Assembly (NCBI GenBank): GCA_015231305.1
Contig: JADGBW010000004.1
Coordinates: forward strand, 1,314 to 65,313
Source: Magnetococcales bacterium
GTDB taxonomy: Bacteria > Pseudomonadota > Magnetococcia > Magnetococcales > JADFYX01
Direction: 5' to 3'
DNA length: 64,000 nt
Made by a program: the position numbers and the translations under genes. Below the pieces are notes generated by a model that was given only the letters and a program-made list of their open reading frames with translations, searched no databases and was not told where the DNA came from. Each line of letters starts with the position of its first letter. The stretch's first letter is position 1. This document shows positions 37,670-62,331 of the stretch, piece by piece.

Positions 37670-38500
37670 TTAATGGACTTTTGCCCATATCCGTCGTTTA
37701 ACTGCATAAAGCAATATGGTAAAGAAGACCAAATAGAGCAAAACCTTAAACCCTAAGGTCTTACGCTCTATTAAGGTTGGTTCAGCAGTCCAAGCCATAA
37801 ATGTTGTAATGTCGTGGGACATCTGTTTTAAAGAGCTTTCCGTCCCATCTGCATACTCAACCGCACCATCAGTTAGAGGAGCAGGCATTGCAAAAAATTG
37901 TCCAGGGAAATATTTGTTAAAATTATCTCCGTTGTCAATCCGTTTCAATGTGTTCTCGATCTGTTTTGGATGATTAGCATCTACGTGTAGAGCAGCTGCT
38001 AGCTCCAACGCCTCAGTTTTTGATACTTTGTTATCTTCCCAGACTTTTTCTACTAGCTCTGTTTCGCCATCGTTAAGATAGCCAGTAAGAATGCCATAGA
38101 CATAATTCTCGTAGCCCTTACGAGCTTTGGTCATTAATGATAGATCAGGGGGAATAAGACCAAATGACTCTTGTGCTGAGATATCATCCATTGCTGATAT
38201 CATTTTATCATTTTTAGTACGACCCTGTGTATCAGCTAAAGCCACTATTTCAGCTTCGGTGTAGCCAAACTGTTTTAGAGATTCAAACTTGATGTATTTA
38301 AAGGAGTGACAAGCCATGCAGACTTCAACTGCTATTTGCGCACCACGCTTTAATGCAGCATTATCAAACTTACCGAAGGCTCCTTTAAAGCCCCACTCCT
38401 GTGAAGGAGGTTTTATTGCTCCGCTAGAAGCAAGTGTAATTTGGGGAACAAAAGCAGCAGCTAATATCGCAACTTGGACAAATTTTAAAAATTTCATCAT
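37670..38500 (-). CDS. petC: ubiquinol-cytochrome c reductase, cytochrome c1 subunit
   Basis: 276 aa. It has a signal peptide, the heme-binding motif CMACHS and a C-terminal membrane anchor. It is the last gene of the petABC order. Confidence 0.9.
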   Translation of the reverse strand: MMKFLKFVQVAILAAAFVPQITLASSGAIKPPSQEWGFKGAFGKFDNAALKRGAQIAVEVCMACHSFKYIKFESLKQFGYTEAEIVALADTQGRTKNDKMISAMDDISAQESFGLIPPDLSLMTKARKGYENYVYGILTGYLNDGETELVEKVWEDNKVSKTEALELAAALHVDANHPKQIENTLKRIDNGDNFNKYFPGQFFAMPAPLTDGAVEYADGTESSLKQMSHDITTFMAWTAEPTLIERKTLGFKVLLYLVFFTILLYAVKRRIWAKVH

Positions 38501-38511
38501 TTAAACTCCCC

Positions 38512-39726
38512 TTACAGACTTTTTGGCAGTGGTAGGGGCTTTTCAATTTTAAAAGCCGTCACGATAAATAACATCACAAAATAGCCGAAGTAGATTGCTG
38601 TTCCGGTACGGCCAAGGATAATAAGAGGCAGAGCTCCATCAAAAGCTGTTGCATCTGATGGGTTATATCCAATCCAACCCAACAATATACAGTCGGCAAC
38701 AAAAATCCAGAATAGAGATCTACTCAATGGGCGGTAACGGAAAGAGCGCACTGGTGAGCGGTCTAAAAATGGTAGGACAAACAGAATACAAATGGCCCCA
38801 ACCATAGCGATAACACCAGCTAGTTTACTATATTCACCCAAAAAGTCGATTGAACGCAAAATGGCATAGAATGGGAGGAAGTACCACTCTGGCACAATAT
38901 GAGCTGGAGTCTGCATCGGGTTTGCAGGAATATAGTTATCCGGCTCTAAAAAGGCGTTGGGGGCAAAAAATACAAACCAGCAATAGATAATAAGAAGTAT
39001 ACCTATTCCATATAGATCTTTGATAGTAAAATATGGGTGGAACGGTAGGGTGTCTTTCTCTTCATTAACAATATCAATACCGTCTGGATTGTTTGAATGC
39101 ACCGCATGTAACGCCCACATATGAACAATAACTAATGCGAAAATAACCAGAGGCAATAGAAAGTGGAGAACATAAAAACGGTTTAATGTGGCATCGCCAA
39201 CAGAAAAACCACCCCAGACCCAAATAACAAGATCTTCACCAACCATAGGAACCGCGGTTATTAAGTTGGTGATAACGGCAGCACCCCAGTAGGACATCTG
39301 ACCCCAAGGTAGTACGTAACCCAAGAAGCCTGTACCCATCATTAAGAAGAATATTATAACTCCAATCCACCAGAGAATCTCTCGTGGAGCACGGTATGAG
39401 CCATAATACATTCCTCTTAAGATATGGACATATATAATAATAAAGAAGAACGTAGCACCGTTAGCATGGAGATAACGTAGCAACCAGCCATAGTTCACAT
39501 CACGCATGATGTGCTCAACAATATCAAATGCTGCTTTAGCATCTGGTTTATAATGCATAGCCAAAAACAGGCCAGTGGCAATCATAACTATCAACATGAA
39601 CAGAGCTAGAGAACCGAAGTTCCACCAGTAGTTCAAGTTTTTGGGGGTAGGATATTCCGTAGCCTGACTTTTTATCATGTCAGATACCGGAATTCGGGCA
39701 TCAACCCATTCCATTAATTTAGACAC
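38512..39726 (-). CDS. petB: ubiquinol-cytochrome c reductase, cytochrome b subunit
   Basis: 404 aa. It is polytopic, with the conserved bis-heme His pairs ([11 protein letters not shown], ...HFLLPLV...) and a PEWYFL motif. Confidence 0.95.
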
Positions 39727-39784
39727 TTTTTTTCCTCCTACTCATCAATCAAATAATAGATGAATTTTTTTGGTTGATTGCCAA

Positions 39785-40309
39785 CTAAACCGGCTTACCA
39801 ATTACAATTGTGTGGTCGTCCTTAAATACATAGTACGGAACCGGCAGGTTCTTTGGTGCAGGACCCTGACGAATACGACCTGAAGTATCATAATGTGAGC
39901 CATGACAAGGACAGAGGAATCCACCAAAATCTCCAGTACCAACTGGTTGCGGAACACAACCAAGATGAGTACACAGTGCTAAAAGAACTAAATATTGTTC
40001 TTTTAATACTCGATCTTTATCTAGCGCAGGATCTGGCAAGCTGGCTGAATCAGCCTCTTTTGCCTGGGCAATCTGTTCTGCGTTTCTATGTAGGATAAAA
40101 ATTGGTTTTCCTTGCCAAGGAATAGTAATCATCTGGCCTTCAGCCAATGCACTGAGATCTGCCTCAGTTGTTGCTTGGGCTAGGACGTCCGCTGAGGGAC
40201 TCCAAGACCTGATGAAAGGCCATGCTGCTGCTGCAGTACCTGCAACACCAACGGCCCCAGTTGCCAGGATGAGAAAGTCCCGGCGATTCTCTTCTGCCTC
40301 AATAACCAT
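39785..40309 (-). CDS. petA: ubiquinol-cytochrome c reductase, Rieske iron-sulfur subunit
   Basis: The Rieske boxes are CTHLGC and CPCHGS. A twin-arginine motif (NRRDFL) is present. I prefer the ATG at 40309 (MVIEAEENRRDFL), which has GGAGG upstream, over the TTG at 40360 in the ORF track. Confidence 0.9.
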   Translation of the reverse strand: MVIEAEENRRDFLILATGAVGVAGTAAAAWPFIRSWSPSADVLAQATTEADLSALAEGQMITIPWQGKPIFILHRNAEQIAQAKEADSASLPDPALDKDRVLKEQYLVLLALCTHLGCVPQPVGTGDFGGFLCPCHGSHYDTSGRIRQGPAPKNLPVPYYVFKDDHTIVIGKPV

Positions 40310-40656
40310 AAAGTCTCTTGACCTCCAGTGAGGTAGCGGGGAAGCTACAAATGAAAACAATATTGTACATGATTCTATTTAAGAACTAAGATTAGGTGTC
40401 GCCATTTATAAAAGCGGTAAATCAAACGATCTTGAGAATCCATACTAAAAAAAACTTAAACCTGAGCCTGTATTTATAAGTGAAAATCGTGATAAAAATC
40501 CTAATGCTGCTTTATCAAAATAGGCAAATATTTATAAGAACACGCTAATATTCCAAATTTACCACCGCTGAGTCAACCATATTTCCACCAAATGACGAAA
40601 AAAATGCATAAAAAGGGTTAATACCCTTAGAAACGAAAGTTTGAGGTAAAATAAAG

Positions 40657-41127: not shown

Positions 41128-41322
41128 AACTAGCTATCTAACAATTCATATTAACTCATATAGCCATAGTCACGTTTTAAACAGCTAACAGGATTGCAAC
41201 TAATTTATGCTTTGCCCTCCTAGATACCAGCTTTCATGTGAAAGATGTACCAATTGTTTTGTGCGTTATTAGAAAATGTAAACATATAATAATGCTAATG
41301 GCCTATTTTTAGGAGAAATTTG

Positions 41323-41853
41323 ATGGAAGAAGTTGAAATTATAGTTGGAGACATAACTAACTTGAAGGTAGATGTAATTGTAAATGCTGCAAATTCTACA
41401 CTTTTGGGTGGTGGTGGTGTTGATGGTGCAATTCATAAAAAAGGTGGAGAAACAATTTTGCAAGAGTGTATAGAGATAAGAAAAAAATCTTATCCTCAGG
41501 GACTTCCAACGGGTCAGGCTGTAATTACCCAAGGAGGAGAGCTACCAGCTTCATATGTAATCCATACAGTTGGGCCAGTGTATGGCGTTGACACCGCGCC
41601 CCAAGCTCAACTAAAAAAATGTTATGAAAATTGTCTTGAGTTAGCCAAGAAAAACGAAGTTGCAAGCATAGCTTTTCCTGGTATAAGCACTGGAGTTTAT
41701 GGTTTTCCCAAAGAGAGCGCTGCTCCCATTGCTTTGATAACCATTAAAGAATTTTTAACAAAATCACCAGGTTCTATAGAACGTATAATACTTTGCGCAT
41801 ATAGCAAAGAAGATCAGGAAATATTACAGCAAGCATATGATAATTTATATTAA
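41323..41853 (+). CDS. macro-domain protein (O-acetyl-ADP-ribose deacetylase, YmdB-like)
   Basis: It reads IVGDITNLKVDVIVNAAN..LLGGGGVDGAIH...FPGISTGVYGFP. The ATG at 41323 has AGGAG 7 nt upstream. The track's TTG at 41320 is one codon earlier. Confidence 0.9.
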   Translation: MEEVEIIVGDITNLKVDVIVNAANSTLLGGGGVDGAIHKKGGETILQECIEIRKKSYPQGLPTGQAVITQGGELPASYVIHTVGPVYGVDTAPQAQLKKCYENCLELAKKNEVASIAFPGISTGVYGFPKESAAPIALITIKEFLTKSPGSIERIILCAYSKEDQEILQQAYDNLY

Positions 41854-43025: not shown

Positions 43026-43433
43026 CTATTTAGTTTTACCTGAAATAAGCCGATCATGATTTTCTTGCACAAATGGTGATGCCTCACCAACCAAACACCA
43101 AATAAGCTGTTTTTTATCAGTAACTTCAAGGTTAGTAAATGCGCACCTATTTTTCAGCTTATCTGATAGTTCTCTTTTTTTCTTTTCTTCAGCATTTTTC
43201 CCCAAAATTTTCCAAACCAAGCAAGGGTATAGTTCCTGTATAAACTTTTGGTTAGCAAGTTTAGGGTCATTAACATGGCTGTTTTTTGCTTTAGAAAAGC
43301 TAGCACTAAAACATCCTGTTGTTGCTGCCACCAACTCTTTAGGGCCAGTAACTACCTCTTGAGAGCAGCTAGATAACAGAAATAGACCCATTATCAAGAG
43401 TAGAAATTTCCGGTAAGCTTTTATAATAATCAA
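43026..43433 (-). CDS. hypothetical lipoprotein
   Basis: 135 aa. It has a signal peptide with a lipobox (LFLLSSC). No other motif was seen. Confidence 0.5.
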   Translation of the reverse strand: MIIIKAYRKFLLLIMGLFLLSSCSQEVVTGPKELVAATTGCFSASFSKAKNSHVNDPKLANQKFIQELYPCLVWKILGKNAEEKKKRELSDKLKNRCAFTNLEVTDKKQLIWCLVGEASPFVQENHDRLISGKTK

Positions 43434-43541
43434 ATTATTTTCTTAAAAAGTTTTATGTGAATAGTGTATTTTGAAGCATTCTTTCATATTAATAGTTTTC
43501 TAGCAAACAAATCCCTATTTACATTCTAAAAATGCTTTTTT

Positions 43542-43877
43542 TTAAGTGGTAGTCTCTAACCTTATAATTTGTCTTTGTTGACGAGCCATATCTATCAATG
43601 GAGTGCTTTCATCTTCTTCCCACTGCTTAATGCCCACGCCTATAGGTTCGATACGACTATCAGTATGTACTGTTGTTTCCCAAAGTATTTCTGTACCGTT
43701 CCAACTATTTGGCTCATCAAACCTAGATGTAACAACCATTAAATCCACATCACTATGGGTATGAGAATCATAGCGAGCATAAGAGCCATATAGAATACCA
43801 AAAGCTACAGGAATGCCTCTTTCTTCAAGTTTATGGAGATAACCTTTTACAGTTTCAACAATTTGTTGAGTAGCCAT
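43542..43877 (-). CDS. nucleotidyltransferase-domain protein (MNT-type, cognate partner of HEPN toxins)
   Basis: 111 aa. It carries the minimal pol-beta NTase motif GILYGSYARYDSHTHSDVDLMVV (GSxxxG...SDxD). Confidence 0.75.
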   Translation of the reverse strand: MATQQIVETVKGYLHKLEERGIPVAFGILYGSYARYDSHTHSDVDLMVVTSRFDEPNSWNGTEILWETTVHTDSRIEPIGVGIKQWEEDESTPLIDMARQQRQIIRLETTT

Positions 43878-44596: not shown

Positions 44597-45565
44597 CTAA
44601 TTAGCCAACTCTTTTTCAATAACCTCAACAAAATCTGAAAAAGGTACAGCACCTACTAGTTTTATGCCGTTTACGAAGAAGGTTGGAGTTCCGGTTATAC
44701 CTAGGGCTTTGCCATCTTTTTTATCAGCGGCAACTCGGCTGGCATATTTATCGCTGTCTAAACATTTGTTAAATTTTTTGCTGTTTAGTTTTAGCTTTTT
44801 TGCCAGTTTTTTATATGCAGATACACTCAGCTCAGCATCTTTTTTAAATAGAGCATGGTGGAAAGACCAGAATGCTTTTTGGTCTTGGGCGCACTGTGCA
44901 GCTTCGGAAGCTTTTGGAGCTTTTTTATGGAATGGTAGTGGGAAATGGCGGAAGACAAAGCGTATTTTGTTGCCATATTCTTTCTCTACCTGTTTTAGTG
45001 CTTTTTGAGCACGACGACAGTAAGGGCATTCATAATCTGAAAACTCAATTATGGTTATTGGGGCATTTTTATTGCCTTTTACCAGATCTTGCGGTCCGGG
45101 AACATCATAACGGGGAGTTTCTAATAAAAATGTAACATTGTATTTACTGGTTAAGCTTTGCAAGTAAGCTGCCTGGAGGTTCTGCTGCAACTGTTTAAGC
45201 AGATAACCACGAATTTTTTCTTCCATCCCTTTACCACCATCTGGTAAGCGAGCAGCGTTAGCTTTTATGAACTCGGCAACATCTGCATCAGATAGTGGTG
45301 GAATTTTATCAAGTACCATTTTTTGCAGTACTTGATCAGCTGCAATATTGTTGGCTTTGGCCTCTAGGCCTAAAAGGTGGTTTATAACTATCTCTTGGAC
45401 TTTTTCTTCTCTTAGTTCATACAATTTTTGCGAAAGCTGTTTGTCAACTTCGGCTAGTTCTAAACTCCAAGAACCTACCGTTGCAACAGGTTGGGCCTGG
45501 GCAGGTGAAATTAAGGATAGAGTTAGTGCAAACAATAGAGGTAGGGCAATTATTAGTCGGATCAT
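44597..45565 (-). CDS. DsbA-family thiol:disulfide oxidoreductase with N-terminal chaperone-like helical domain
   Basis: 322 aa. It has a signal peptide and a thioredoxin-fold CxxC active site (FSDYECPYCRR), followed by GTPTFFVNG. Confidence 0.85.
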   Translation of the reverse strand: MIRLIIALPLLFALTLSLISPAQAQPVATVGSWSLELAEVDKQLSQKLYELREEKVQEIVINHLLGLEAKANNIAADQVLQKMVLDKIPPLSDADVAEFIKANAARLPDGGKGMEEKIRGYLLKQLQQNLQAAYLQSLTSKYNVTFLLETPRYDVPGPQDLVKGNKNAPITIIEFSDYECPYCRRAQKALKQVEKEYGNKIRFVFRHFPLPFHKKAPKASEAAQCAQDQKAFWSFHHALFKKDAELSVSAYKKLAKKLKLNSKKFNKCLDSDKYASRVAADKKDGKALGITGTPTFFVNGIKLVGAVPFSDFVEVIEKELAN

Positions 45566-45592
45566 GTTTTTGTTCCGTTTGAATTGAAAAGG

Positions 45593-46030
45593 TTAATTAG
45601 TTTTGTAGATATCATCTGCTCGTTTACGAAATGCATCTACCATTCTTTTGGATGCTTCTCCAAAAACTGGGCCCAAAGCCATTTCTATTAGGCGACTTTT
45701 AAAACGAAAATCGATAAAAAAGTCTATGGTACAACCCCCATTGGGAGAGTCAATAAAGCTCCATTCGCTCTCAAGATGTTTAAAGGGGCCAGAGATGTTG
45801 GAAATAGTAATTTTTTTACCTGGAACAACAGTATCAAGAGTTTTAAAAGTCTCGCGCATACCCTTAAAAGATATGGTCATTTCAGACATAAATTTATTGT
45901 CTTTTTCATCATATTTGCGTGCTTTTGCCAACCAGGGAATAAACTCCGGATATCTATCCATATCAACTACCAGGTCATACATCTGTGAAGCACTATAAGG
46001 TACTTTTGTGGACGAAGTACGTTTACTCAT
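45593..46030 (-). CDS. SRPBCC / RatA (COQ10-like, polyketide cyclase fold) family protein, copy 2
   Basis: 145 aa. It reads YPEFIPW...ISFKGMRETF...FIDFRFKSRL...GPVF and aligns along its whole length with the adjacent gene. Confidence 0.8.
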   Translation of the reverse strand: MSKRTSSTKVPYSASQMYDLVVDMDRYPEFIPWLAKARKYDEKDNKFMSEMTISFKGMRETFKTLDTVVPGKKITISNISGPFKHLESEWSFIDSPNGGCTIDFFIDFRFKSRLIEMALGPVFGEASKRMVDAFRKRADDIYKTN

Positions 46031-46055
46031 TTTATAATGTGACTCCTTATCGCCC

Positions 46056-46496
46056 TTAATTACGATGAAGGGCTATTGCTCTTTTTCTAAATGCACTTAT
46101 CATCTGCTTAGAAACTTGTGTAAATACTGGCCCCATGATCATCTCTTTCATACGGCTGGAGAAACGAAAGTCAATAAAAAACTCTATTTTTGTTCTATCC
46201 TCTCCAATGGGGTGAAAATGCCAGGTACTTACTAAATATTGAAATGGGCCCGATTTAAGATTGATCTCAATTTTTTTATTTGGCACTACAATATCTTGAG
46301 TTTGAAATTTCTCTCGCATCCCTTTAAAGGATATTGACATTTCTGCCATAAATTGAGTGTCTGTTTTATCCCATACACGAGCCTTACCACACCAAGGTAA
46401 AAATTTAGGATAGCTCTCTACATCCACCACGACGTTATACATCTGTTCGGCTGTAAAAGGTAGGACTTCACTGACGCGAATTTTTGGCATGGGCAA
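46056..46496 (-). CDS. SRPBCC / RatA (COQ10-like) family protein, copy 1
   Basis: 146 aa. It reads YPKFLPW...ISFKGMREKF...FIDFRFSSRM...GPVF and is a tandem paralog of 45593-46030. Confidence 0.8.
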   Translation of the reverse strand: MPMPKIRVSEVLPFTAEQMYNVVVDVESYPKFLPWCGKARVWDKTDTQFMAEMSISFKGMREKFQTQDIVVPNKKIEINLKSGPFQYLVSTWHFHPIGEDRTKIEFFIDFRFSSRMKEMIMGPVFTQVSKQMISAFRKRAIALHRN

Positions 46497-46734: not shown

Positions 46735-49700
46735 ATGAGAGCAAGAGGTCTTAGCTTACAGGTTACAAATTTTATGGCAATTATAATGCGACATACAAAA
46801 AAAAATCCTCATAAATCAGACGCTTTACGAGCAAACCTGCTTGAGACGGCAGTTGAGCCAATTAGCATAGATTCTCGCCATGAACCACTTAGAGTGGTCG
46901 TTGCAAACTATGCAGGTATATTAAAAAATTTAGACCGCTTACTGCGCGAGCTAAACCACCCTTATCGCAACTGGAAACTCATCATGCCTGAGTTGCGAGG
47001 TTTTGTGCTGAAAAATTGCTCACGCTATATAAGCAGTAAAGATGGCCCCGGTTGTTTTTTACTATTTAGTGATTTTTTTCTTGGTGCATTAGTAGAAGTT
47101 AGGGCTGAGGCAGATATACGTACGGTTTTAGAAGGTTTGACAGCCTACCTGGAGAAACAGGCTCAGCTTTTAAAAGGTGAGCAAATAGCGGATTATGCAC
47201 AAGCATTTGAAACTATTATCTTAGCTCTTTCAGCTCTCCCAGATTCTCGGCTGTTACTTCTTTCCCAGACTCACCATCCGTTAAAAAGAACGGTGAGTTT
47301 AATGATAAAAAAGACCAACAAAGCAGGTCTACCATTTCCACTTTCTGCTAAAGTTGTTCAGCAGTTAGCTGTTCGCTCGCTACATGCTACTTATGAATAT
47401 TGGCTGCAACAGTCTGACCCAGAGTGGTACGCAGTTTTAGGAACTGACCCATGTGATCAGATAAGCCATAAGGCTTTAAATAAGGTTAAAGAGGAGCTAG
47501 AACAGCTATCACAAGAGCCAACTACACCTGCTACTTTGGAAAAGCTGACCAAAATGCCATCGTTTTTGGACATTATTCGCCACTATCGTGAAGCAGCCGA
47601 ACTGTTAGGTCAGGGTAACGATGGGGATACGGTCTCAGCAGAGCATCTTATTGAAGGTCGTAAATTAAGGTTTTTATTCCATATTATGGAGATAGATGGT
47701 CTCTCCATGATTCATGAAGAGACTTTAAGAGAGATTAACCGATCATTGGTGCGGTTAATTCGCCTTCAACGTAGCTACAGCGAAATACATGAAGCATTTA
47801 TTACAGCTTTTTCATTTTTAAAGGCCAATGTTGTTATCTATCCTCATACTGCACTACAGTGTATTGAAGTATTAGGCATTGAGGTGTTTCGCCATAATAA
47901 CAACAGGTTGGTGGAGTCATTTTTAGAGCAAACAGTACGTTTTGGTTTTCAGTTTAGCTCTGTCACAGGGGTTGATAACGATTGGCAGCCAATCTGCAAT
48001 CCTGCCCATCTATACAATATACGTATATGGCTTAGCCTGATTACACAAAACCCACCATGGTCTCCAGTGCTATTTTCGGCATTGATAATAAATTTAAAAC
48101 TTACAGGAGCATTGATAAAGGATACTGACCTTTTTCAAAAAGAGATTTCCCACTTATTAAACAGTGGAATTAAACCAGTCTATAATCTTTCTAAACAGTT
48201 TTGTCGCCAGCTTCCAGTCTATTATAACGAAATTGGGGCTGAAGGTGAGCTTCGCACTGTTTCAACAGAGCTAGATGAAATTAGTCGCCGCAAGGACCGT
48301 TTGATACATTTTTTACGTAAACAGTGTCATGTGGAGAGCACTAACCGCATTGTTGACCTCTCTTATAATATTCTTAAATATTGGCAAACTGGTGAAAAAG
48401 AGGTTTTGCAAGGTTTAGTCGCTGATGCAATATTGGCAGATATTGTTCCTAATGGACCCTATTTTGATCATGTACATATAATCATGAAGGCTCTGTTTGA
48501 TGATGAGGAACTTTTAAATGATCCAGTTAATCAACCGCTGTATCTTGTAGAAGAAAAAATAAAAAGCTTTAGCCAACTTCCAGCTAGTGAAGGAAGAAGG
48601 GTTTTATTGATGATTCGTCTCTATCATCAGTTAGAGCTAAAATATAATCTCGGTTTCAGGGGGATTCGCCAGCCACTGCGTCAGGCTGTTGAGGATGGTA
48701 TCCCAGGTATGGATGCCCTGTTAACTATCTTGGAGAGCGGAGCGGAGGGTTATGAGCGTCTAGGAGGACTATTAGATGCTATGGAGAGTTTAAAAGAGAC
48801 CATTTTAAGTGAAGAGGTTTTCCCTGCACGAGAGGAGATATACCAAAAGCGACATATAGCTGTGGATATTCCATCAGTGTATGGTTGTTATCAGGAACGT
48901 AAATTTGATGCTCTCTCTTTGAGTTTTCGTTTAGAAAACTTGGCAAATGTCGATCTTGAAGGGTTGGTGGGACGAATCCCAGAAGATTTTATCACTCGTG
49001 CTGCATTTTTTAAGGTTTTTAAATATCTTAAAATATTCTTAAGGGCACTACATATAGATGGGGTCACATCTCGTAAATTAACCCATATGCAGGATGTTTT
49101 AGAACGGTTTTTAGAGTTAAACCATTTCTCATACCATCAATACCTGGATATCTTTCGCAGTTTTTCCGAAGGTGTGAAAGATATAATATTATCTTATTAC
49201 ACTACCCACCATCGGGATAATCTATCTATCATTGTCCCTATGATCCCTAGAGAAGCCTTGCTAAGTAAATATGCGAGCCTAAAAGATGATAACGATGATG
49301 TTATTTCGGTAGAGAGAATAGGTGAATCATTTCTTCGTGATCTTATAGCCGAGACATTTGGTTTACAGGCGTTTGATCGTTTCATTAGTAGAATTTTGCA
49401 AATTTTAGCCCGTCAGCAAGAGGTGTTGTCTCCGCCGCGTCTTGATCAACTTATGACTTATGATCCGGCAAGGCTGTTTTGCTCTCTCTATAAACCTGAC
49501 CATCGGGTACGTAATTTAATTCATTTGGGTAACAAGGGTTTTAACCTGGTTGAACTAGAAGAAAAAGGGCTTAAAGTACCAGCCGGTGTGGTGTTGACAA
49601 CTGAGTTTTTCCGTTGTCGTCCTGTAATTAGAGAATACCCACCAGCATCGCGAGATTTTATGGCCCGCCTGCGCAAACAGGTTACTTTAATAGAGGATCA

Positions 49701-51003
49701 GACTGGCTTGGTTTTTGGTTCAGAAGATAAGCCTCTGTTGTTATCTGTACGTAGTGGAGCCTTAATTTCTATGCCGGGTATGATGCAGACTATACACAAT
49801 GTGGGGCTTAACGAAAAAATAGTTGAAGGGCTGGTGCGTGAATCTGGCAACGGATTTTTTGCCTGGGATAACTATCGCCGTTTTATACAATCATGGTGTA
49901 TGACCTTTGAGGTAGACAGGGGTATTTTTACCGATCTTATGCACAGTGCTAAACGGCGCTATGGTGTTAAGAAAAAACACGAATTAAGTGAAGGTCAAAT
50001 GGCTGAATTGGCTAAGCAATATAAACAAATTGCCGATGAACACGATCTTTTGATACCTGATGATCCTTGGCAACAACTACTTGGGGCTATTAATCAGGTT
50101 GTGGAATCATGGGAGTCTACAAAAGCAAAAGAGTACCGTAGCATTATGAATATATCAGATTCTTGGGGTACTGCTGTTGTTTTGCAGCGTATGGTTTATG
50201 GAAATATCCATCAACAGGCAGGCTCTGGAGTATTTTTTACCTCCCACCCTCACCGTAAATTAGACAGGGTATTGCTTTGGGGAGACTACACACCAGGCAA
50301 CCAGGGTGAGGATATTGTAGGAGGGTTAGTCTCTACTAACCCTATGTCTTTAGAGCAGTGTGAATATGACGGGCGCGATCCTAAAAATAGCTTGCAACAA
50401 TGTTACCCTAAAATTTACAACAAAATATTGGAAGAGGCCCACCATTTGGTTGATGTTTGCAACTGGAATGCTCAAGAGGTGGAGTTCACTTTTGATGGGC
50501 CAGAAGAGGAAAATCTGTTTTTTCTGCAAAGTAGAGATATGATAACTAGTAAAAACCGCCAAGCTATCTTCCATAGTTTTGTGGATTCTCAAAGATTAAG
50601 AGAGTCACGGTTAATTCAAGGTATTGGCGTTAGTGGTGGTGCGTTGTGTGGTAAAGCTGTTTTTAATTTAGATCAAGTAGAACAGATGCGTTTAAAAGAT
50701 CCTAAAACACATTTAATTTTAATTCGTTACGATACCGTACCAGATGACATAAGAGAGATTTCACTAGCTGATGGACTTTTGACTGCTCGTGGTGGACAAA
50801 CCTCACATGCTGCAATTGTCGCTGCCCGTTTGGAAAAAACTTGCGTAGTTGGCTGTGAAGATTTGGCTATCCACGAGGAGGAGGGGGTATGTAAAATTAA
50901 TGGAAATACAATATATTGTGGAGACAAAATTAGTATAGACGGCAACCGGGGGCTATTATTTAAGGGGTGGCATGAAATTGAAACCAGCCTGCTGCCAGAT
51001 TAG
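46735..51003 (+). CDS. large PPDK-like protein: ~900-aa unknown N-terminal region + PEP/pyruvate-dikinase ATP-grasp domain + phospho-His swivel domain, no PEP/pyruvate TIM-barrel
   Basis: 1422 aa. From about aa 925 it reads LIHLGNKGFNLVELEEKGLKVPAGVVLT, LLSVRSGALISMPGMMQTIHNVGLN, DNYRRFIQ, GTAVVLQRMVYGN, SGVFFTSHP and NQGEDIVGG. These are the hallmark blocks of the PPDK nucleotide-binding domain. Then comes TARGGQTSHAAIVAARLEKTCVVGC (phospho-His, codon 50806-50808) and GDKISIDGNRGLL, and the protein ends. The start is uncertain (ATG at 46735, 46774 or 46786). Confidence 0.8.
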   Translation: MRARGLSLQVTNFMAIIMRHTKKNPHKSDALRANLLETAVEPISIDSRHEPLRVVVANYAGILKNLDRLLRELNHPYRNWKLIMPELRGFVLKNCSRYISSKDGPGCFLLFSDFFLGALVEVRAEADIRTVLEGLTAYLEKQAQLLKGEQIADYAQAFETIILALSALPDSRLLLLSQTHHPLKRTVSLMIKKTNKAGLPFPLSAKVVQQLAVRSLHATYEYWLQQSDPEWYAVLGTDPCDQISHKALNKVKEELEQLSQEPTTPATLEKLTKMPSFLDIIRHYREAAELLGQGNDGDTVSAEHLIEGRKLRFLFHIMEIDGLSMIHEETLREINRSLVRLIRLQRSYSEIHEAFITAFSFLKANVVIYPHTALQCIEVLGIEVFRHNNNRLVESFLEQTVRFGFQFSSVTGVDNDWQPICNPAHLYNIRIWLSLITQNPPWSPVLFSALIINLKLTGALIKDTDLFQKEISHLLNSGIKPVYNLSKQFCRQLPVYYNEIGAEGELRTVSTELDEISRRKDRLIHFLRKQCHVESTNRIVDLSYNILKYWQTGEKEVLQGLVADAILADIVPNGPYFDHVHIIMKALFDDEELLNDPVNQPLYLVEEKIKSFSQLPASEGRRVLLMIRLYHQLELKYNLGFRGIRQPLRQAVEDGIPGMDALLTILESGAEGYERLGGLLDAMESLKETILSEEVFPAREEIYQKRHIAVDIPSVYGCYQERKFDALSLSFRLENLANVDLEGLVGRIPEDFITRAAFFKVFKYLKIFLRALHIDGVTSRKLTHMQDVLERFLELNHFSYHQYLDIFRSFSEGVKDIILSYYTTHHRDNLSIIVPMIPREALLSKYASLKDDNDDVISVERIGESFLRDLIAETFGLQAFDRFISRILQILARQQEVLSPPRLDQLMTYDPARLFCSLYKPDHRVRNLIHLGNKGFNLVELEEKGLKVPAGVVLTTEFFRCRPVIREYPPASRDFMARLRKQVTLIEDQTGLVFGSEDKPLLLSVRSGALISMPGMMQTIHNVGLNEKIVEGLVRESGNGFFAWDNYRRFIQSWCMTFEVDRGIFTDLMHSAKRRYGVKKKHELSEGQMAELAKQYKQIADEHDLLIPDDPWQQLLGAINQVVESWESTKAKEYRSIMNISDSWGTAVVLQRMVYGNIHQQAGSGVFFTSHPHRKLDRVLLWGDYTPGNQGEDIVGGLVSTNPMSLEQCEYDGRDPKNSLQQCYPKIYNKILEEAHHLVDVCNWNAQEVEFTFDGPEEENLFFLQSRDMITSKNRQAIFHSFVDSQRLRESRLIQGIGVSGGALCGKAVFNLDQVEQMRLKDPKTHLILIRYDTVPDDIREISLADGLLTARGGQTSHAAIVAARLEKTCVVGCEDLAIHEEEGVCKINGNTIYCGDKISIDGNRGLLFKGWHEIETSLLPD

Positions 51004-51148: not shown

Positions 51149-52639
51149 CTACATATTATTTAATAAATCCATAATTTTAGGCTCTACACTATATACAAAC
51201 GGAACCATCTTATCTCTAATTTGAAAAAAGATGCTTATCTGGTTTGTTCTACCGCTAAATACTATATGATGGTCTTTTATATCTCCTGCATCTAGCCAAA
51301 CAGAGACATCTTCTGATAAGGGATTATGTGCTACAATAAATGGTGTTTCTGGGGTAACGTTAAGGTTTTTGCGAAAACGGGCGACATCCATTTTAGTATA
51401 TCCAGCAGGATACCCAGGTCGCCGCAGGCGGTTCCATATTAGCTCTTTTACTAAACCGGGATAACGGTAAGTGTTAATCAATAGGTCTTGAGTTACCTTG
51501 GCTTTGGGAGGAGCTGCGTGGCAGACGATAAATTGCTCGGATTTAACAATATATGGCAGGTTGAGATATAGCCTATCAAACTCTTCTTTATATTTTTCCC
51601 CGCGCAGTTTTCTAATTTGCTTTTCCCATAAAATCCCCTGGGGTATTCCAGTTTTACTAACATCTTCTGAAAAACTATCGTGATTACCCCGTAGATAAAA
51701 AATTTGCGATGGAAAACGAATTTTTAGTTTAAAGATAAAATCCATCATTAAGATGGAATTCTCCATTTCCTCCATCTCACCATCAATTTCTGAGTGGACA
51801 GCATCACCCAAAAAGATTAAGTAGATTAATCCCTGTTCTAAAGCATCGAGAAAATGGTTTTCGGTGAGAATTTTTACAAGGTTACCTACCTGACTATGGA
51901 GATCACCAATAATAAGTGGGGCTAGTCCATCTGGAGGTAGCACCAATCCCCCTGGTCTGCCGCGGTCATCCAGTGGTCGGCTTGCATCTTTATCTAGAAT
52001 ATCATTAATTTCTTGTATGGTCTTTAAAGCTTCTTGATTTGGTAGAATCTTAATAGGACCACCATATATCTCTTTAAGTTTTGCTAGTCGAGACATTCTT
52101 TGGGAGACAATTTTTTCTTCTTCAAGGTTATCACCCAATGGGGTTAGATATGTTCCTCTATCTTCGGTTAAATCTTTAAAAATTAGTGAATCACCACCAT
52201 GGGCGATTGTTAAATGTTTTTTTGCCACATTTTTAGGGAAATGAAAATATGTTTGCTGTAGCTCATCTCCGCAGCCTAGAACAATTGAATCACCTGGTTC
52301 TAAACGAAAAAAACCACTTGGTTGTTTGAAGTAGTTTTCAGGGTCAATAACTATAAGTGTTTGCGTTTTAATTTCTAAAGAAGAGTCTAAAAGAAATTCT
52401 GGGCATATCCATAACTCTTTCCCCTTTCTTTGTTTGCCTAATACACAACTAAAAGCCCCATTGCTGTATGGGACACGAATTTCATCACCCAGAAGAAACA
52501 CCTCTTGGTTAAGGTCAACATCATCATATGTTTTAGGTCTGATAAAAGTTGCTTTTAATCTATCAAAAAAACTAAGCGAGGAAGTATTTGCGATGTTTGG
52601 CATAATGAAGTCCACAGTGAAGAAAATGTTACTAATCAA
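51149..52639 (-). CDS. FHA-like domain + calcineurin-like metallophosphoesterase (PPP-type phosphatase) protein
   Basis: 496 aa. The central and C-terminal region carries the metallophosphatase motifs LIIGDLHS (GDxH), IFLGDAVHS (GDxxH-like), YLRGNHDS (GNHD/E) and VCHAAPP. The N-terminal segment reads IVLGCGDE...VAKKHLTIAHGGDSLIFKDLTEDRGTYL, which is FHA-like. The start is uncertain (TTG at 52639 or ATG at 52603). Confidence 0.7.
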   Translation of the reverse strand: MISNIFFTVDFIMPNIANTSSLSFFDRLKATFIRPKTYDDVDLNQEVFLLGDEIRVPYSNGAFSCVLGKQRKGKELWICPEFLLDSSLEIKTQTLIVIDPENYFKQPSGFFRLEPGDSIVLGCGDELQQTYFHFPKNVAKKHLTIAHGGDSLIFKDLTEDRGTYLTPLGDNLEEEKIVSQRMSRLAKLKEIYGGPIKILPNQEALKTIQEINDILDKDASRPLDDRGRPGGLVLPPDGLAPLIIGDLHSQVGNLVKILTENHFLDALEQGLIYLIFLGDAVHSEIDGEMEEMENSILMMDFIFKLKIRFPSQIFYLRGNHDSFSEDVSKTGIPQGILWEKQIRKLRGEKYKEEFDRLYLNLPYIVKSEQFIVCHAAPPKAKVTQDLLINTYRYPGLVKELIWNRLRRPGYPAGYTKMDVARFRKNLNVTPETPFIVAHNPLSEDVSVWLDAGDIKDHHIVFSGRTNQISIFFQIRDKMVPFVYSVEPKIMDLLNNM

Positions 52640-53748: not shown

Positions 53749-54111
53749 CTATTTATCTATGAGAAGGTCTTCTTTTTTTCCGCCATTGTTAAAAAATTGT
53801 TGATAGATATTGGGGCATCTACCACGACCAGACCATTTTACCCCTTTATATTCATATTTTGGCTTAACCTTGGGTGAGCTAGGTTTTTTAGTTGAAGGAA
53901 AAGTGCCTTCAAAAAAATCGGATAAATTCAGGCCTAAATTATTGGCCTTTCTATTTAGCCTAAGCTTATAGTCTTGTTTATATTGAGTTTGACGCTGCTT
54001 TATTAAAACTTCTAATTTCTTCTTAATAGCAATAAGAGTATCAAGCTCTAGAGCTTCCAGCTCTTCGTGATTTACGTTGCCAATTTTAGTTTTTAGATGT
54101 TGCATAGCCAC
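53749..54111 (-). CDS. H-NS family nucleoid-associated DNA-binding protein
   Basis: 120 aa. It has an N-terminal coiled coil (LEALELDTLIAIKKKLEVLIKQRQ) and a Lys-rich linker. The C-terminal KYEYKGVKWSGRGRCPNIY matches the H-NS DNA-binding loop motif (TWSGRGRxP). Confidence 0.7.
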   Translation of the reverse strand: MAMQHLKTKIGNVNHEELEALELDTLIAIKKKLEVLIKQRQTQYKQDYKLRLNRKANNLGLNLSDFFEGTFPSTKKPSSPKVKPKYEYKGVKWSGRGRCPNIYQQFFNNGGKKEDLLIDK

Positions 54112-59385: not shown

Positions 59386-60990
59386 TTAAAGCTGTGGTCC
59401 CGCTGCTACCAAAGCCTTACCTTCTGCGTTATCAGTATATTGAGCAAAATTATCAACAAACATCTGTGCTAGTTTCTTGCCTTTAGTTTCCCACTCGTCT
59501 CGGTTTTCATAAGTATCACGAGGATCAAGAATAGAGCTATCTACACCTGGAAGAGAGGTCGGTACACAAAGGTTAAATAGTGGAATCTCTTTAGTTGGAG
59601 CCTGATCAATGGAGCCATCTAAAATTGCGTCGATTATTCTACGAGTATCTTGGATAGATATTCTTTTTCCTGTTCCATTCCATCCAGTATTAACCAGATA
59701 AGCAGTAGCCCCAACTGATTCCATACGTTTTATTAGCTCTACTCCGTACTTTGTTGGGTGCAGTGTTAAAAATGCTGCGCCAAAACAGGCTGAGAAAGTA
59801 GGGGTTGGTTCAGTAACTCCCCGTTCAGTTCCTGCAAGTTTTGCAGTAAAGCCTGAGAGAAAATGGTATTTAGTCTGCTCAGGGGTTAGTTTAGATACTG
59901 GAGGTATTACTCCATAAGCGTCAGCTGTTAAAAATATGACCTTTGATGCGTGTCCAGCTTTCGAAGGAGAAGGCACGCTGTTTTCAATATGGTGAATTGG
60001 ATACGATACACGAGTATTTTGGGTTACTGAGGAGTCTGTATAGTCAATTTTACCATTTGCATCTACTGTTACATTCTCCAGAAGAGCATCACGTCGAATA
60101 GCTTTATAGATGTCAGGCTCTGCTACTGGGTCCATGTTTATGGTTTTTGCGTAACAGCCACCTTCAAAGTTAAATATACCATCATCGTCCCAACCATGCT
60201 CGTCATCACCAATTAATTTACGTTTAGGATCAGTAGAAAGAGTGGTTTTTCCAGTGCCAGACAGGCCGAAGAAGATTGCTGTATCACCATCGTTACCTAC
60301 ATTGGCAGAGCAATGCATTGCTGCCATGCCACCCAAAGGCAGGTAGTAGTTCATGAGAGAGAACAGACCTTTTTTCATCTCTCCGCCATACCAAGTGCCA
60401 CCAATTATTTGCATTTTTTCGGTTAGGTTAAACGCTGAGAAGTTCTCAGAGTTTAGGCCCAGCTCTTTATAGTCACTATTGCTAGTTTTAGAGCCATTCA
60501 TAACTACAAAGTCTGGTTCACCAAAATTTTTCAACTGTTCAGGTGTTGGTGTGATGAACATATTGGTTACAAAATGGGCCTGCCATGCCACTTCAACAAT
60601 AAAGCGAACTTTTAAACGGCTAGTATCATTTGCACCACAAAATGCATCTACTACAAAAAGCCGTTTGTTGGATAGCTGGTTGACCACTAAACCTTTACAG
60701 TGTTGCCACTGTTTTTGGTTCATAGGTTTGTTGTCAGAACGATTATCAGCTTCCCACCACCAAACAGTATCTTTGCTGATTGCATCCTCAACAATATATT
60801 TATCTTTGGGAGAACGGCCTGTAAAAATGCCAGTCATGACATTAACTGCGCCATTCTCAGTTACAACTCCTTTTTCATAACCCTCTAAACCTGCTTTGGT
60901 CTCCTCGGCAAATAGCTCCGGGTAAGACGGGTTGTGAATAATTTCAGTAACTCCAACAATATTATATTTTTCAAGTTCTTGAGGCTGCAT
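59386..60990 (-). CDS. pckA: phosphoenolpyruvate carboxykinase (ATP)
   Basis: 534 aa. It has the kinase-1a motif [13 protein letters not shown], plus IGDDEHGW and the PCK-specific domain blocks. Confidence 0.97.
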
Positions 60991-61041: not shown

Positions 61042-62331
61042 TTATTTTTTTATGCTCTCCTGGGTTAAATAGACCCTTGCTCTTATCTTACTATCTTCTA
61101 CTGCTGGTTGATCATAAGCATCAACTCCTAAAAATTCCGCCATAATGACCGTCTCTGATTCTAACAGGATGATCATCTCACCGAAAGCAAATGCATCTCC
61201 TGTTGCAATATTAAATGTTCTTACCGGTAACTTGCGGTTTATAAGAGCATCTCTAGTACCTAGAAATTCTGCCTTAAATAACTCTCCCGTACTACGACCA
61301 ATAAGTGGTGTAACTGACTTTAATTTCTTAAAATTTTTACTTAGTTTTTTAGAAATTTTTCTACCTGAATTAGTGCTTTTAGGATCAAACAAAAAGGTAA
61401 ACTGTTTATCACTAGGGCCATCAAGGTAAAGTTGTAGTTGTGAGTGTTGGTCTGTTACGCCACGTGCAGCAACAGGGGTTAAGCCATGGGGTTTGCCCTC
61501 AACATCGGTTTTACCAAGACTCTCCCCTAATAGTTGGCTCTGCCATGCTGCGACTCGGTCTAGTTTTTGTCCATAACTCATATAAACACTGATATTTTTG
61601 GCTTTTTTATTCATTAAATATTGGCTGGCTGCCCCACGCAATGCCGGGTTAGTTTCAAAATCTGCCAATAAACATTTTTTCAGCATAAATTTTGCGCCGT
61701 CAAGAAGCTCAGCTATATCAGCTCCCGCTACAGCAGCTGGTAGAAGGCCAACAACTGATAAGGCAGAAAAACGCCCACCAACTGCTGGATGATCAATAAT
61801 CGGTATGTTAAGGATTTTGGCAATTTTACCAATATCACTCTTACGATTTTCTGTGATAATCGCAACATGCTGATTAAAATCTGAACCTAAACGGTTTTGC
61901 AAAGCGGGCAGGGTAGTTAAAAACTGGCTTAAGGTTTCGGCTGTTCCTCCAGACTTACTAACTACCAGCAAAAATGTTTTGCGCCAATCTACCTTGTTAA
62001 GGTTAGAAAGTGTATTAGGGTCAACATTATCGTAAAATTTTACCGGAAGGCCACCTTTGGTTTTTAAGCCATTGACCAACATTTCCCCACCTAAAGAGCT
62101 ACCGCCTATTCCAAATACTATAAGCTGATTGGCTCTCTTACAGATTTTTTTACGCCATTTTTGTACAGTTTTTAGGATGTTTTTATCTGTAGGTAAGGTC
62201 ATAAAAGGGGGCATACTGCCCATATTCCAATATTTAATACGACCTTTAACAAGGTTTAAAAGCTCAGCATCTTTCTGGATATCTGCCGTAGCAAAGCCAC
62301 TATCTTCTATTTGAAGCCCTAGTTTACTCAT
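61042..62331 (-). CDS. pgi: glucose-6-phosphate isomerase (short bacterial type)
   Basis: 429 aa. The SIS-domain motifs are FGIGGSSLGGEM and VVSKSGGTAET, followed by DQHSQLQLYLDGP. Confidence 0.9.
   Translation of the reverse strand: MSKLGLQIEDSGFATADIQKDAELLNLVKGRIKYWNMGSMPPFMTLPTDKNILKTVQKWRKKICKRANQLIVFGIGGSSLGGEMLVNGLKTKGGLPVKFYDNVDPNTLSNLNKVDWRKTFLLVVSKSGGTAETLSQFLTTLPALQNRLGSDFNQHVAIITENRKSDIGKIAKILNIPIIDHPAVGGRFSALSVVGLLPAAVAGADIAELLDGAKFMLKKCLLADFETNPALRGAASQYLMNKKAKNISVYMSYGQKLDRVAAWQSQLLGESLGKTDVEGKPHGLTPVAARGVTDQHSQLQLYLDGPSDKQFTFLFDPKSTNSGRKISKKLSKNFKKLKSVTPLIGRSTGELFKAEFLGTRDALINRKLPVRTFNIATGDAFAFGEMIILLESETVIMAEFLGVDAYDQPAVEDSKIRARVYLTQESIKK

Follow-up and report, generated by a model that had tools for sequence, protein, structure and literature searches.

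In rifampin phosphotransferase (RPH), the prodiginine-condensing enzymes PigC/HapC and the glucan water dikinase GWD, the acceptor site is provided by an extra domain. For pyruvate phosphate dikinase (PPDK), the literature defines the catalytic residues of the N-terminal part as K22, R92, D321, E323, R337 and H455, and a barrel-less relative from Mycobacterium tuberculosis, VadK (Rv1127c), has been described that autophosphorylates on histidine with ATP/Mg and binds two methylcitrate-cycle enzymes. Here, we examine an arrangement of these parts, found in gene X (product, protein X), the open reading frame (ORF) at 46735-51003 (+) of a 64,000-nt stretch of a Magnetococcales contig (JADGBW010000004.1; hereafter, the window). 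Judging from its sequence and gene order, our preferred reading, which is tentative and stays somewhat short of an even chance, is that X is a catalytically competent, PPDK-derived, ATP-dependent phosphohistidine (di)kinase in which the barrel that binds phosphoenolpyruvate (PEP) and pyruvate has been replaced by a helical N-terminal domain (N-domain) of ~900 residues, and which acts at the glyceraldehyde-3-phosphate dehydrogenase (GAPDH) node.

The catalytic module is the best-defined part of the protein. The translation contains LLSVRSGALISMPGMMQTIHNVGLN, DNYRRFIQ, GTAVVLQRMVYGN, NQGEDIVGG, GGQTSHAAIVA and GDKISIDGNRGLLFKG, i.e., all the motifs that an earlier note on this DNA had quoted as PPDK blocks in a 1422-aa protein. 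Pfam places PPDK_N at residues 974-1203 (E = 3.7e-25, 89.4 bits, gathering cut-off 27) and the PEP-utilizers swivel domain at residues 1327-1406 (E = 9.6e-18, 64 bits, cut-off 23.1). Residues 925-1415 can be aligned over their full length with Clostridium symbiosum PPDK residues 14-511 (PDB 1KBL; E = 1e-78, ~38% identity overall), with 39% identity in the ATP-grasp domain and 36% in the swivel, a likeness far past chance. The six PPDK residues listed above correspond, in the same order, to K934, R1006, E1248, E1250, R1267 and H1358 of X, with a conservative Asp-to-Glu swap at E1248; the ATP-grasp domain also holds R1048/R1049 and Q1265. His1358 is therefore PPDK His455, at the codon (50806) where the catalytic histidine had been proposed to lie. 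Across 48 diverse family members (26-51% identity to X), K934 is kept in all 48, His1358, R1006 and E1250 in 47 each, and R1267 in 46, with Lys in the other two. From this conservation, X is very probably an active His-phosphorylating kinase.

The same comparisons agree with the claim that the barrel is missing. Pfam detected no PEP-utilizers_C barrel (PF02896) in X, nor in any of the 35 family members scanned (35/35), and the PPDK barrel residues R561, R617, E745 and D769 have no counterpart in X in the PPDK alignment. Since the X C-terminus comes only 7 residues past the end of the alignment at PPDK residue 511, the barrel is absent from X. At the other end, a deposited protein from a Magnetococcales metagenome-assembled genome (MAG; P0001) is 100% identical to X with a length of 1405 aa. 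ATG codons near the 5′ end lie at 46735, 46774 and 46786, and the longest ORF begins 17 codons before the deposited start; because the identical deposited protein has 1405 aa, the real start of X is probably M18 at 46786.

Ahead of the catalytic module, the ~900 residues of the N-domain, in which no domain had been recognised earlier, proved just as unfamiliar to database searches. Pfam and NCBIfam gave no family for this region in X or in 35 diverse members, PDB searches gave no match with phmmer (E ≤ 10) and one noise match with a profile (E = 0.39), and the PADLOC defence models gave no match. We modelled the domain with AlphaFold2 (AF2; 36-sequence alignment), which yielded a model of ~45 helices with only one beta-hairpin, at residues 699-720 (pLDDT 81.9, pTM 0.69). 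Foldseek searches of the 920-aa model against PDB retrieved only CRM1, importin, CAND1 and designed repeats, i.e., generic HEAT/ARM solenoids at TM 0.1-0.2, and against BFVD nothing. The conserved core (residues 296-760), modelled separately (pLDDT 78.5), had no Foldseek match at E ≤ 1e-3 and otherwise only generic or designed helical repeats (TM 0.1-0.3). A known substrate-binding domain, which the earlier note had allowed for in this region, was thus looked for and not matched.

Conservation of the N-domain is nonetheless on par with that of the catalytic module. Seventeen residues, mostly charged or polar, are invariant in the 48 sequences down to 26% identity: D463, P494, G504, R507, D514, R528, K529 and H532, all in the block of residues 463-537, and K636, Y637, K705, H707, S714, G717, G776, R868 and D881. 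Positions conserved in ≥90% of the 48 sequences (~20 in total) include E72, H75, H425, D465, E503, R519, D521, H525, E534, E700, R706, Y716, Y719, E721 and R732, and the domain is marked by the signature blocks DTDLFQ, NEIGAEGELR, HFLRKQxHVE and KRHIAxDIPSxYGxYxExKF. So many invariant Arg, Lys, His, Asp and Glu residues suggest that the domain binds a ligand or takes part in catalysis, with a substrate that is anionic and possibly metal-bound, and in its sequence the N-domain resembles a functional site more than a spacer. A small-molecule acceptor site in this domain is, in our estimate, a little less than an even call.

This architecture is shared by a large family. Full-length X retrieved >100 homologues of ~1400 aa (49-100% identity) from Magnetococcales (including Magnetococcus marinus MC-1), Desulfobulbaceae/Desulfobulbia, Thiovibrio, Desulfolithobacter and Candidatus Parabeggiatoa; overall, homologues number in the hundreds and span Magnetococcales, Desulfobulbales, Desulfobacterales, Beggiatoaceae and Myxococcota. 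A search with the N-terminal 920 residues against 1.84 billion representatives (clusters at 50% identity) matched 518 clusters at E ≤ 1e-3, of which 177 passed E ≤ 1e-30. All complete cluster members measure 1335-1540 aa with the ~500-aa PPDK module behind the N-domain, and none of the complete family members carries a barrel. We also scanned metagenome contigs with an N-domain-only alignment and motifs as seed, the beta-hairpin block 699-734 being among the search patterns; this replaced a previous scan of genome contigs that was swamped by the PPDK motif SMPGMMxT and gave 7 loci only. Relatives are encoded on 564 of the 600 candidate metagenome stretches. Metagenome locus counts given here and below refer to the best 80 loci, and wider neighbour counts to 98 related loci.

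The PPDK module is complete in 65 of these 80 loci, while the other 15 are cut by contig ends. All shorter family matches examined, i.e., the 15 incomplete loci and the deposited protein P0178, are contig-end cuts: P0178 was considered as a stand-alone N-domain protein and rejected as a fragment at the end of a 2.9-kb contig. X is thus a real gene, and the caveats raised earlier, i.e., a fusion artefact, a pseudogene or homologues that carry the barrel, are excluded, every complete homologue being barrel-less. Overall, the X family is real, widespread, uncharacterised and mis-annotated. Its database names vary between “phosphoenolpyruvate synthase”, “PPDK” and “PEP/pyruvate-binding domain-containing protein”; the first two are misleading because the TIM barrel is absent, a 900-aa domain has been added, and X scores 371 bits against a PPDK cut-off of 843 bits. 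Within the family, a hemerythrin (HHE) subgroup represented by P0155 and P0172 (cluster P0271-P0276) has 1455-1540 aa with the HHE domain N-terminal of the helical domain, which may point to control by O2, iron or redox state in some members.

Next, we evaluated the genomic context of X relatives, in which GAPDH is the conserved partner. Both flanks could be assessed in 42 metagenome loci; 37 of these (88%) have GAPDH directly adjacent on the same strand, and 13 have a GAPDH on each side of X. A canonical-type GAPDH lies just upstream on the same strand in 44 of 63 loci with an assessable upstream flank, and a long-type GAPDH just downstream in 21 of 52 with an assessable downstream flank. This linkage is spread over the family: 17 of 20 clusters (N-domains at 70% identity) include a GAPDH-adjacent locus, and the association is seen too in Thiovibrio and Desulfopila. 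De novo clustering of neighbours in the 98 loci returned GAPDH (63 loci), a GlgA-like protein (23), phosphoglycerate kinase (PGK; 14) and triose-phosphate isomerase (12), and no other recurrent families. X is followed within 30-110 bp by the long GAPDH paralogue (381-417 aa) in M. marinus MC-1 and a Magnetococcales MAG (62% identity), and the same spacing recurs in two Desulfobacterales-type MAGs and in members at 35%, 32% and 28% identity. The typical full operon reads gapA – X – long gap – pgk – tpi, and in locus L078 gapA ends 1 nt before the X start, with long gap, pgk and tpi after it. Desulfobulbales loci are ordered GlgA-like – (hypothetical) – canonical GAPDH – X. The GAPDH partner of the family varies by lineage, being canonical, long or both. 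From this pattern, it is highly likely that X is functionally tied to the GAPDH node. A literature search found nothing on the X family or on a PPDK-like/GAPDH gene pair.

The long GAPDH paralogues form a clade of their own interest. Both GAPDH types retain the SCTTN cysteine, the TIHA histidine and the TGAA, VRVPT and WYDNE motifs, and the MC-1 long form scores above the type-I GAPDH cut-off (406 vs 367 bits). The long form is set apart by five conserved insertions, one of ~30 aa after the THTRT motif, and by Gly-Arg (“NVGR”) where “INDL” has the Asp that specifies NAD. What is established on dehydrogenase cofactor specificity is the basis for reading loss of this Asp as NADP(H) preference, and the Gly-Arg replacement accordingly suggests that the long GAPDH may use NADP(H). 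The clade is widespread in Magnetococcales and Thermodesulfobacteriota, and no paper on it was found. Among its top 120 members, at least 17 come from a contig equal in length to one that encodes an X-family protein. In Desulfolithobacter, the long gap is the first gene of a separate gap-GNAT-pgk-tpi-secG operon, 200 kb away from X; long GAPDH is therefore not strictly dependent on X.

Several smaller genes accompany these clusters. In several Desulfobulbales-type loci, a conserved protein of ~270 aa (L004:5957-6790; also L024, L026, L069 and L076) lies between GlgA-like and canonical GAPDH and has no Pfam or NCBIfam family. A small GNAT acetyltransferase is found in or next to the gap/X/pgk cluster at L012:7465-7917, L017:9218-9661 and L068:1908-2339; these loci are unrelated, and the proteins share 32-38% mutual identity. 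Several Desulfobulbales-type loci have a stand-alone response-regulator receiver gene directly downstream of X and convergent to it, which may be lineage synteny only.

How X might act at the GAPDH node can be laid out in three steps. First, the ATP-grasp domain (925-1268) would use ATP to phosphorylate His1358 on the C-terminal swivel, as expected from the full conservation of the PPDK catalytic residues. Second, the swivel would carry the phosphoryl group to another site, of which the invariant charged and polar residues clustered in the N-domain are the putative components (D463, R507, D514, R528, K529, H532, K636, Y637, K705, H707, S714, R868 and D881). Third, the acceptor would come from the GAPDH step of lower glycolysis/gluconeogenesis, a proposal made because of the gene order. 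The candidate reaction we prefer is 3-phosphoglycerate (3-PG) + ATP (+ Pi or H2O) ↔ 1,3-bisphosphoglycerate (1,3-BPG) + AMP (+ PPi or Pi), i.e., a dikinase route parallel to PGK whose acyl-phosphate would be handed to the adjacent GAPDH. Pairs of a kinase and an acyl-phosphate reductase are common in bacteria (PGK/GAPDH, AK/ASADH, ProB/ProA and ArgB/ArgC). 3-PG/1,3-BPG was chosen because of the GAPDH neighbour, this pairing of carboxylate kinase and acyl-phosphate reductase, and the chemistry of succinyl-CoA synthetase. That the acceptor is specifically 3-PG/1,3-BPG is doubtful all the same. The two anhydride bonds spent would pull the uphill PGK/GAPDH segment towards gluconeogenesis and glycogen, which agrees with the presence of glgA-gapA-X operons in sulfur bacteria that are autotrophic or limited in energy, while the reverse reaction would remake ATP from AMP and PPi. 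In its most specific form, the proposal makes X a 3-phosphoglycerate dikinase with a new helical acceptor domain, paired with a dedicated, probably NADP-type, long GAPDH; in this form we consider it speculative and rather unlikely.

A number of observations weigh against an enzyme with a small-molecule acceptor at this node, and most of them would suit a regulatory phosphohistidine kinase of the VadK kind. Such a protein might autophosphorylate His1358 according to adenylate, PPi or Pi status, and its helical N-domain would bind the neighbouring GAPDH isoenzymes or other enzymes of lower glycolysis as a docking surface or a sensor; the protein could then serve as a flux switch between glycolysis, gluconeogenesis and glycogen storage, either lacking a small-molecule acceptor or using a protein as acceptor. 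VadK, the closest characterised barrel-less PPDK to X, is itself a PPDK cut after the swivel, autophosphorylates the equivalent histidine, co-purifies with two enzymes of one pathway, and has been proposed as a regulator; X scores 282 bits on NF004531, the model of this truncated type. The only structural resemblance of the N-domain is to HEAT/ARM repeats (and alpha-SNAP-type repeats), a class more typical of protein binding, and 900 residues is large for a triose-binding site. Two of the 35 scanned members and the cluster of P0172 bear an extra hemerythrin domain (Pfam), which could act as a sensor, and the hemerythrin-type member at L014:8001-12623, the sole such locus inspected, has a ferritin-like neighbour and no GAPDH nearby. 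PGK is in the same operon as X in many loci, so that a second 3-PG-activating enzyme is not obviously needed, and in 13 loci X is bracketed by two distinct GAPDH paralogues, which is where one might expect a switch. Finally, X has no GAPDH neighbour in the window: this lineage and its 80%-identical relative L016 are among the minority that lost GAPDH adjacency.

Other observations fit regulation less well. Such a density of invariant charged residues at 26% identity is unusual for a docking scaffold, and a GAPDH partner that varies by lineage is easier to reconcile with a common metabolite than with one particular protein interface. X lies below the NF004531 cut-off (282 vs 456 bits) and so is not a VadK orthologue, and VadK works without an extra domain. 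The VadK mechanism is itself a model built from pull-downs and low-confidence AF3 complexes. On balance, we regard a VadK-like regulator as a serious possibility, although not the one we expect.

The glycogen genes found near some X relatives raise another option, namely that X is a bacterial glucan (glycogen) dikinase similar to GWD and the phosphoglucan water dikinase (PWD), with the helical N-domain binding storage polyglucan. GWD shares the ATP → His~P → acceptor logic, a GlgA-like glycogen synthase lies 2-3 genes upstream in 23 of the 98 loci, all of the Desulfobulbales type, and an alpha-amylase with CBM48 follows the long GAPDH in L015. Yet the general partner of X is GAPDH (63 vs 23 loci) and not a glycogen enzyme; no glycogen gene is found near X in Magnetococcales or in the gapA-X-gap-pgk-tpi loci. 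Pfam detected no carbohydrate-binding module (CBM) in X and 35 relatives, Foldseek no (alpha/alpha)6 or CBM fold, and the domain order is unlike that of GWD. A glucan dikinase is therefore improbable.

We consider it more improbable still that X is a pyruvate/PEP dikinase after all, with a pyruvate site supplied by the new N-domain or by a separately encoded barrel in trans, in which case databases that name it “phosphoenolpyruvate synthase / PPDK” would in essence be right. The ATP-grasp and swivel are indeed closest to genuine PPDK (371 bits on TIGR01828 vs 67-76 on PpsA models), PPDK is a lower-glycolysis enzyme whose presence in such an operon would be compatible, and genes for PEP carboxykinase and phosphoglucose isomerase (PGI) lie 8-11 kb away in the window. 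Against this, X misses the PPDK cut-off by a wide margin (371 vs 843 bits), and R561, R617, E745 and D769 are without counterpart; no stand-alone PEP-utilizers_C gene was found among the Pfam-annotated neighbours of the inspected loci, and the 98 loci hold no additional recurrent neighbour family. Nor is X paired with enolase or pyruvate kinase, its conserved partner being GAPDH. In addition, a survey that required barrel residues reports M. marinus to use a dikinase and PEP carboxykinase route, which suggests that MC-1 may also have a canonical pyruvate dikinase. A reported lack of enolase in cable bacteria was considered as a link and dropped as a tangent, a closed genome now questioning that report. 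That X is an inactive remnant, i.e., a pseudo-enzyme or an assembly/annotation artefact, can hardly be entertained: no supporting point was found, and it is opposed by an uninterrupted frame of 1422 codons, hundreds of full-length homologues in several phyla, conserved catalytic residues and tight operon packing, with a 1-nt gap to gapA in L078.

In the window itself, X is flanked upstream by two divergent SRPBCC genes and a DsbA-like gene, and downstream by a convergent Metallophos gene (Table 1). The upstream trio is kept in Magnetococcales only (L016:7892-9798, L018:4319-6167 and L020:4225-4647). The downstream gene had been put forward in the earlier note as an FHA-phosphatase and a conserved neighbour worth surveying, and neither part held: its 240-aa N-terminal part is unannotated, with an FHA-like stretch, HLTIAHGGDSLIFKDLTEDRGTYL, visible by eye, Pfam detected Metallophos but no FHA domain (E ≤ 0.5), and the gene has no homologue in the 98 related loci, so that it was rejected as a partner of X. 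The Metallophos neighbour of X in MC-1 was rejected as a match, being a different, YaeI-like protein. Overall, the interpretation offered earlier thus stood in its architecture, i.e., an intact ATP-grasp and swivel, no barrel and a novel N-terminal region, and failed in its proposed neighbour, GAPDH being conserved instead. The closest precedent, VadK, was not among the enzymes that it named, and its functional idea of a new dikinase or signalling kinase with the acceptor site in the N-domain stays a proposal. The PEP carboxykinase and PGI-like genes lie side by side on the strand opposite to X; because they are 8-11 kb downstream, gluconeogenic genes are present in the wider X neighbourhood, though GAPDH is not. 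The nucleotidyltransferase gene and the small ORF beside it are possibly a toxin-antitoxin-like pair.

Table 1 Coordinates of gene X, its domains and motifs, other genes in the window, and selected genes at related loci (L numbers).
Feature	Position	Strand	Details or basis
Longest ORF of gene X, stop codon included	46735-51003	+	1422 aa from first ATG, reading frame uninterrupted
Probable true start codon, M18	46786-46788	+	1405-aa deposited twin; homologues align only from residues 23-28 onwards
Family-specific all-helical N-terminal domain, residues ~18-920	46786-49494	+	AF2 model; without known relative
Conserved motif ELNHPYRNW, E72 and H75 nearly invariant	46948-46974	+	Family alignment
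Top-conserved N-domain block, residues 463-537: DTDLFQ ... NEIGAEGELR ... HFLRKQCHVESTN	48121-48345	+	Family alignment
Conserved beta-hairpin block, residues 699-734: EEIYQKRHIAVDIPSVYGCYQERKFDALSLSFRLE; invariant K705, H707, S714, G717	48829-48936	+	AF2 and alignment
PPDK-type ATP-grasp (nucleotide-binding) domain, residues 925-1268	49507-50538	+	Pfam, NCBIfam, PDB alignment
Phospho-histidine swivel (PEP-utilizers mobile) domain, residues 1297-1415	50623-50979	+	Pfam, PDB alignment
Catalytic His1358 codon, TSH motif, = PPDK His455	50806-50808	+	PPDK alignment
Cytochrome bc1 operon (Rieske, cytochrome b, cytochrome c1)	37670-40360	-	Homology to annotated L016
Macro-domain protein	41320-41853	+	
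Nucleotidyltransferase (Polbeta/NTP_transf_2) beside small unannotated ORF	43026-43877	-	
Two tandem SRPBCC (Polyketide_cyc) genes and DsbA-like thioredoxin gene	44597-46496	-	Divergent from X
Metallophos protein, 496 aa, Metallophos at residues 242-411	51149-52639	-	Pfam
H-NS-like protein	53749-54111	-	
ATP-dependent PEP carboxykinase and phosphoglucose-isomerase-like gene	59386-60990, 61042-62331	-	PEPCK_ATP, E 1.8e-202
Long type-I GAPDH, 381-417 aa	L001:12399-13634; L007:14284-15531; L008:14201-15436; L012:12342-13589; L015:12198-13451; L018:10607-11842; L017:8001-9221		
Receiver gene downstream of X	L004:12276-12668; L005:4670-5068; L022:8256-8636; L048:11260-11634	-	

Lower glycolysis (gap-pgk-tpi) is usually taken as fully described, and a 1400-residue uncharacterised protein inside this core operon is unexpected. 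The family is large (>500 clusters at 50% identity) and occurs in environmentally important sulfur-cycling bacteria. Its members are routinely mis-annotated as PEP synthase or PPDK, an error that skews how metabolism around pyruvate and PEP is reconstructed. If X is an enzyme, it would add a new reaction at the triose-phosphate level and a new substrate-binding fold; as a 3-PG dikinase, it would give sulfur-cycling bacteria of sediments, together with the long GAPDH, either a thermodynamically pulled route of gluconeogenesis that does not depend on PGK or a branch of glycolysis that salvages PPi and AMP. If X is a regulator, phosphohistidine control of the VadK kind, described very recently in mycobacteria, would prove to be phylogenetically broad and to reach GAPDH isoenzymes.

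Compared with known systems, X qualifies as a member of the broad PEP-utilising/dikinase superfamily, both of its Pfam domains scoring above their gathering cut-offs. By sequence models or domain layout, it lies outside every characterised family tested: its first half-reaction is predicted to be like theirs, while its second half-reaction and third domain are without a described counterpart. PPDK (PDB 1KBL/1DIK; EC 2.7.9.1) and X share the ATP-grasp, the swivel, the catalytic residues and the TSH motif, whereas PPDK has a TIM barrel (residues ~534-874) and X has none but carries the added 900-aa N-domain; on TIGR01828, X reaches 370.9 bits (cut-off 843.45), with profile positions 14-335 and the swivel matched. 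The other models mostly see the swivel: X scores 66.6 bits on TIGR01418 (cut-off 739.75) and 76.2 bits on NF005057 (cut-off 598) for PpsA, and 17.6 bits on TIGR01417 (cut-off 341.7) for PTS Enzyme I, in each case in the swivel region only. PTS Enzyme I combines an HPr-binding N-domain, a swivel and a PEP-binding barrel.

RPH and the prodiginine-condensing enzymes (PigC/HapC/RedH) follow the logic proposed for X, from ATP-grasp to His~P swivel to an acceptor on a third domain, and the RPH swivel is C-terminal, as in X. The third, acceptor-binding domain of RPH is reportedly all-helical; RPH structures were absent among the Foldseek matches listed for the N-domain. In these enzymes the order is ATP-grasp, substrate domain, swivel, whereas the extra domain of X comes first, and their context is antibiotic resistance and secondary metabolism as opposed to central metabolism. 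Their model scores on X are negligible (24-30 bits), with 24.2 bits on NF041857 for RPH (cut-off 999; swivel only). GWD and PWD likewise combine a PPDK-type nucleotide domain and a phospho-His domain and use a substrate other than pyruvate, and glycogen genes occur in some X loci. In GWD, carbohydrate-binding modules lie at the N-terminus and the His domain comes before the C-terminal ATP-grasp; X, by Pfam in the protein and 35 relatives, has no such module, and its order is the opposite, ATP-grasp then swivel. In succinyl-CoA synthetase, an ATP-grasp domain phosphorylates a mobile histidine that passes the phosphoryl group to a carboxylate, giving an acyl-phosphate. Together with ATP-citrate lyase, it is a mechanistic analogue of the proposal for X and not a relative: the His element has another fold, ADP rather than AMP is formed, and there is no detectable homology to the N-domain.

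VadK comes closest in layout. Both proteins consist of a PPDK-derived ATP-grasp and swivel, lack the TIM barrel and end right after the swivel, and the C-terminal 500 aa of X have the VadK-type layout (~490-534 aa) preceded by the 900-aa domain; on NF004531 (VadK/truncated PPDK, PRK05878), X scores 281.9 bits against a cut-off of 456. VadK, with ~490 aa, has no N-terminal domain, whereas X has 900 extra, highly conserved residues. VadK belongs to Actinomycetota and the methylcitrate cycle, and X to Magnetococcales, Desulfobacterota, Beggiatoaceae and others, where its partner is GAPDH.

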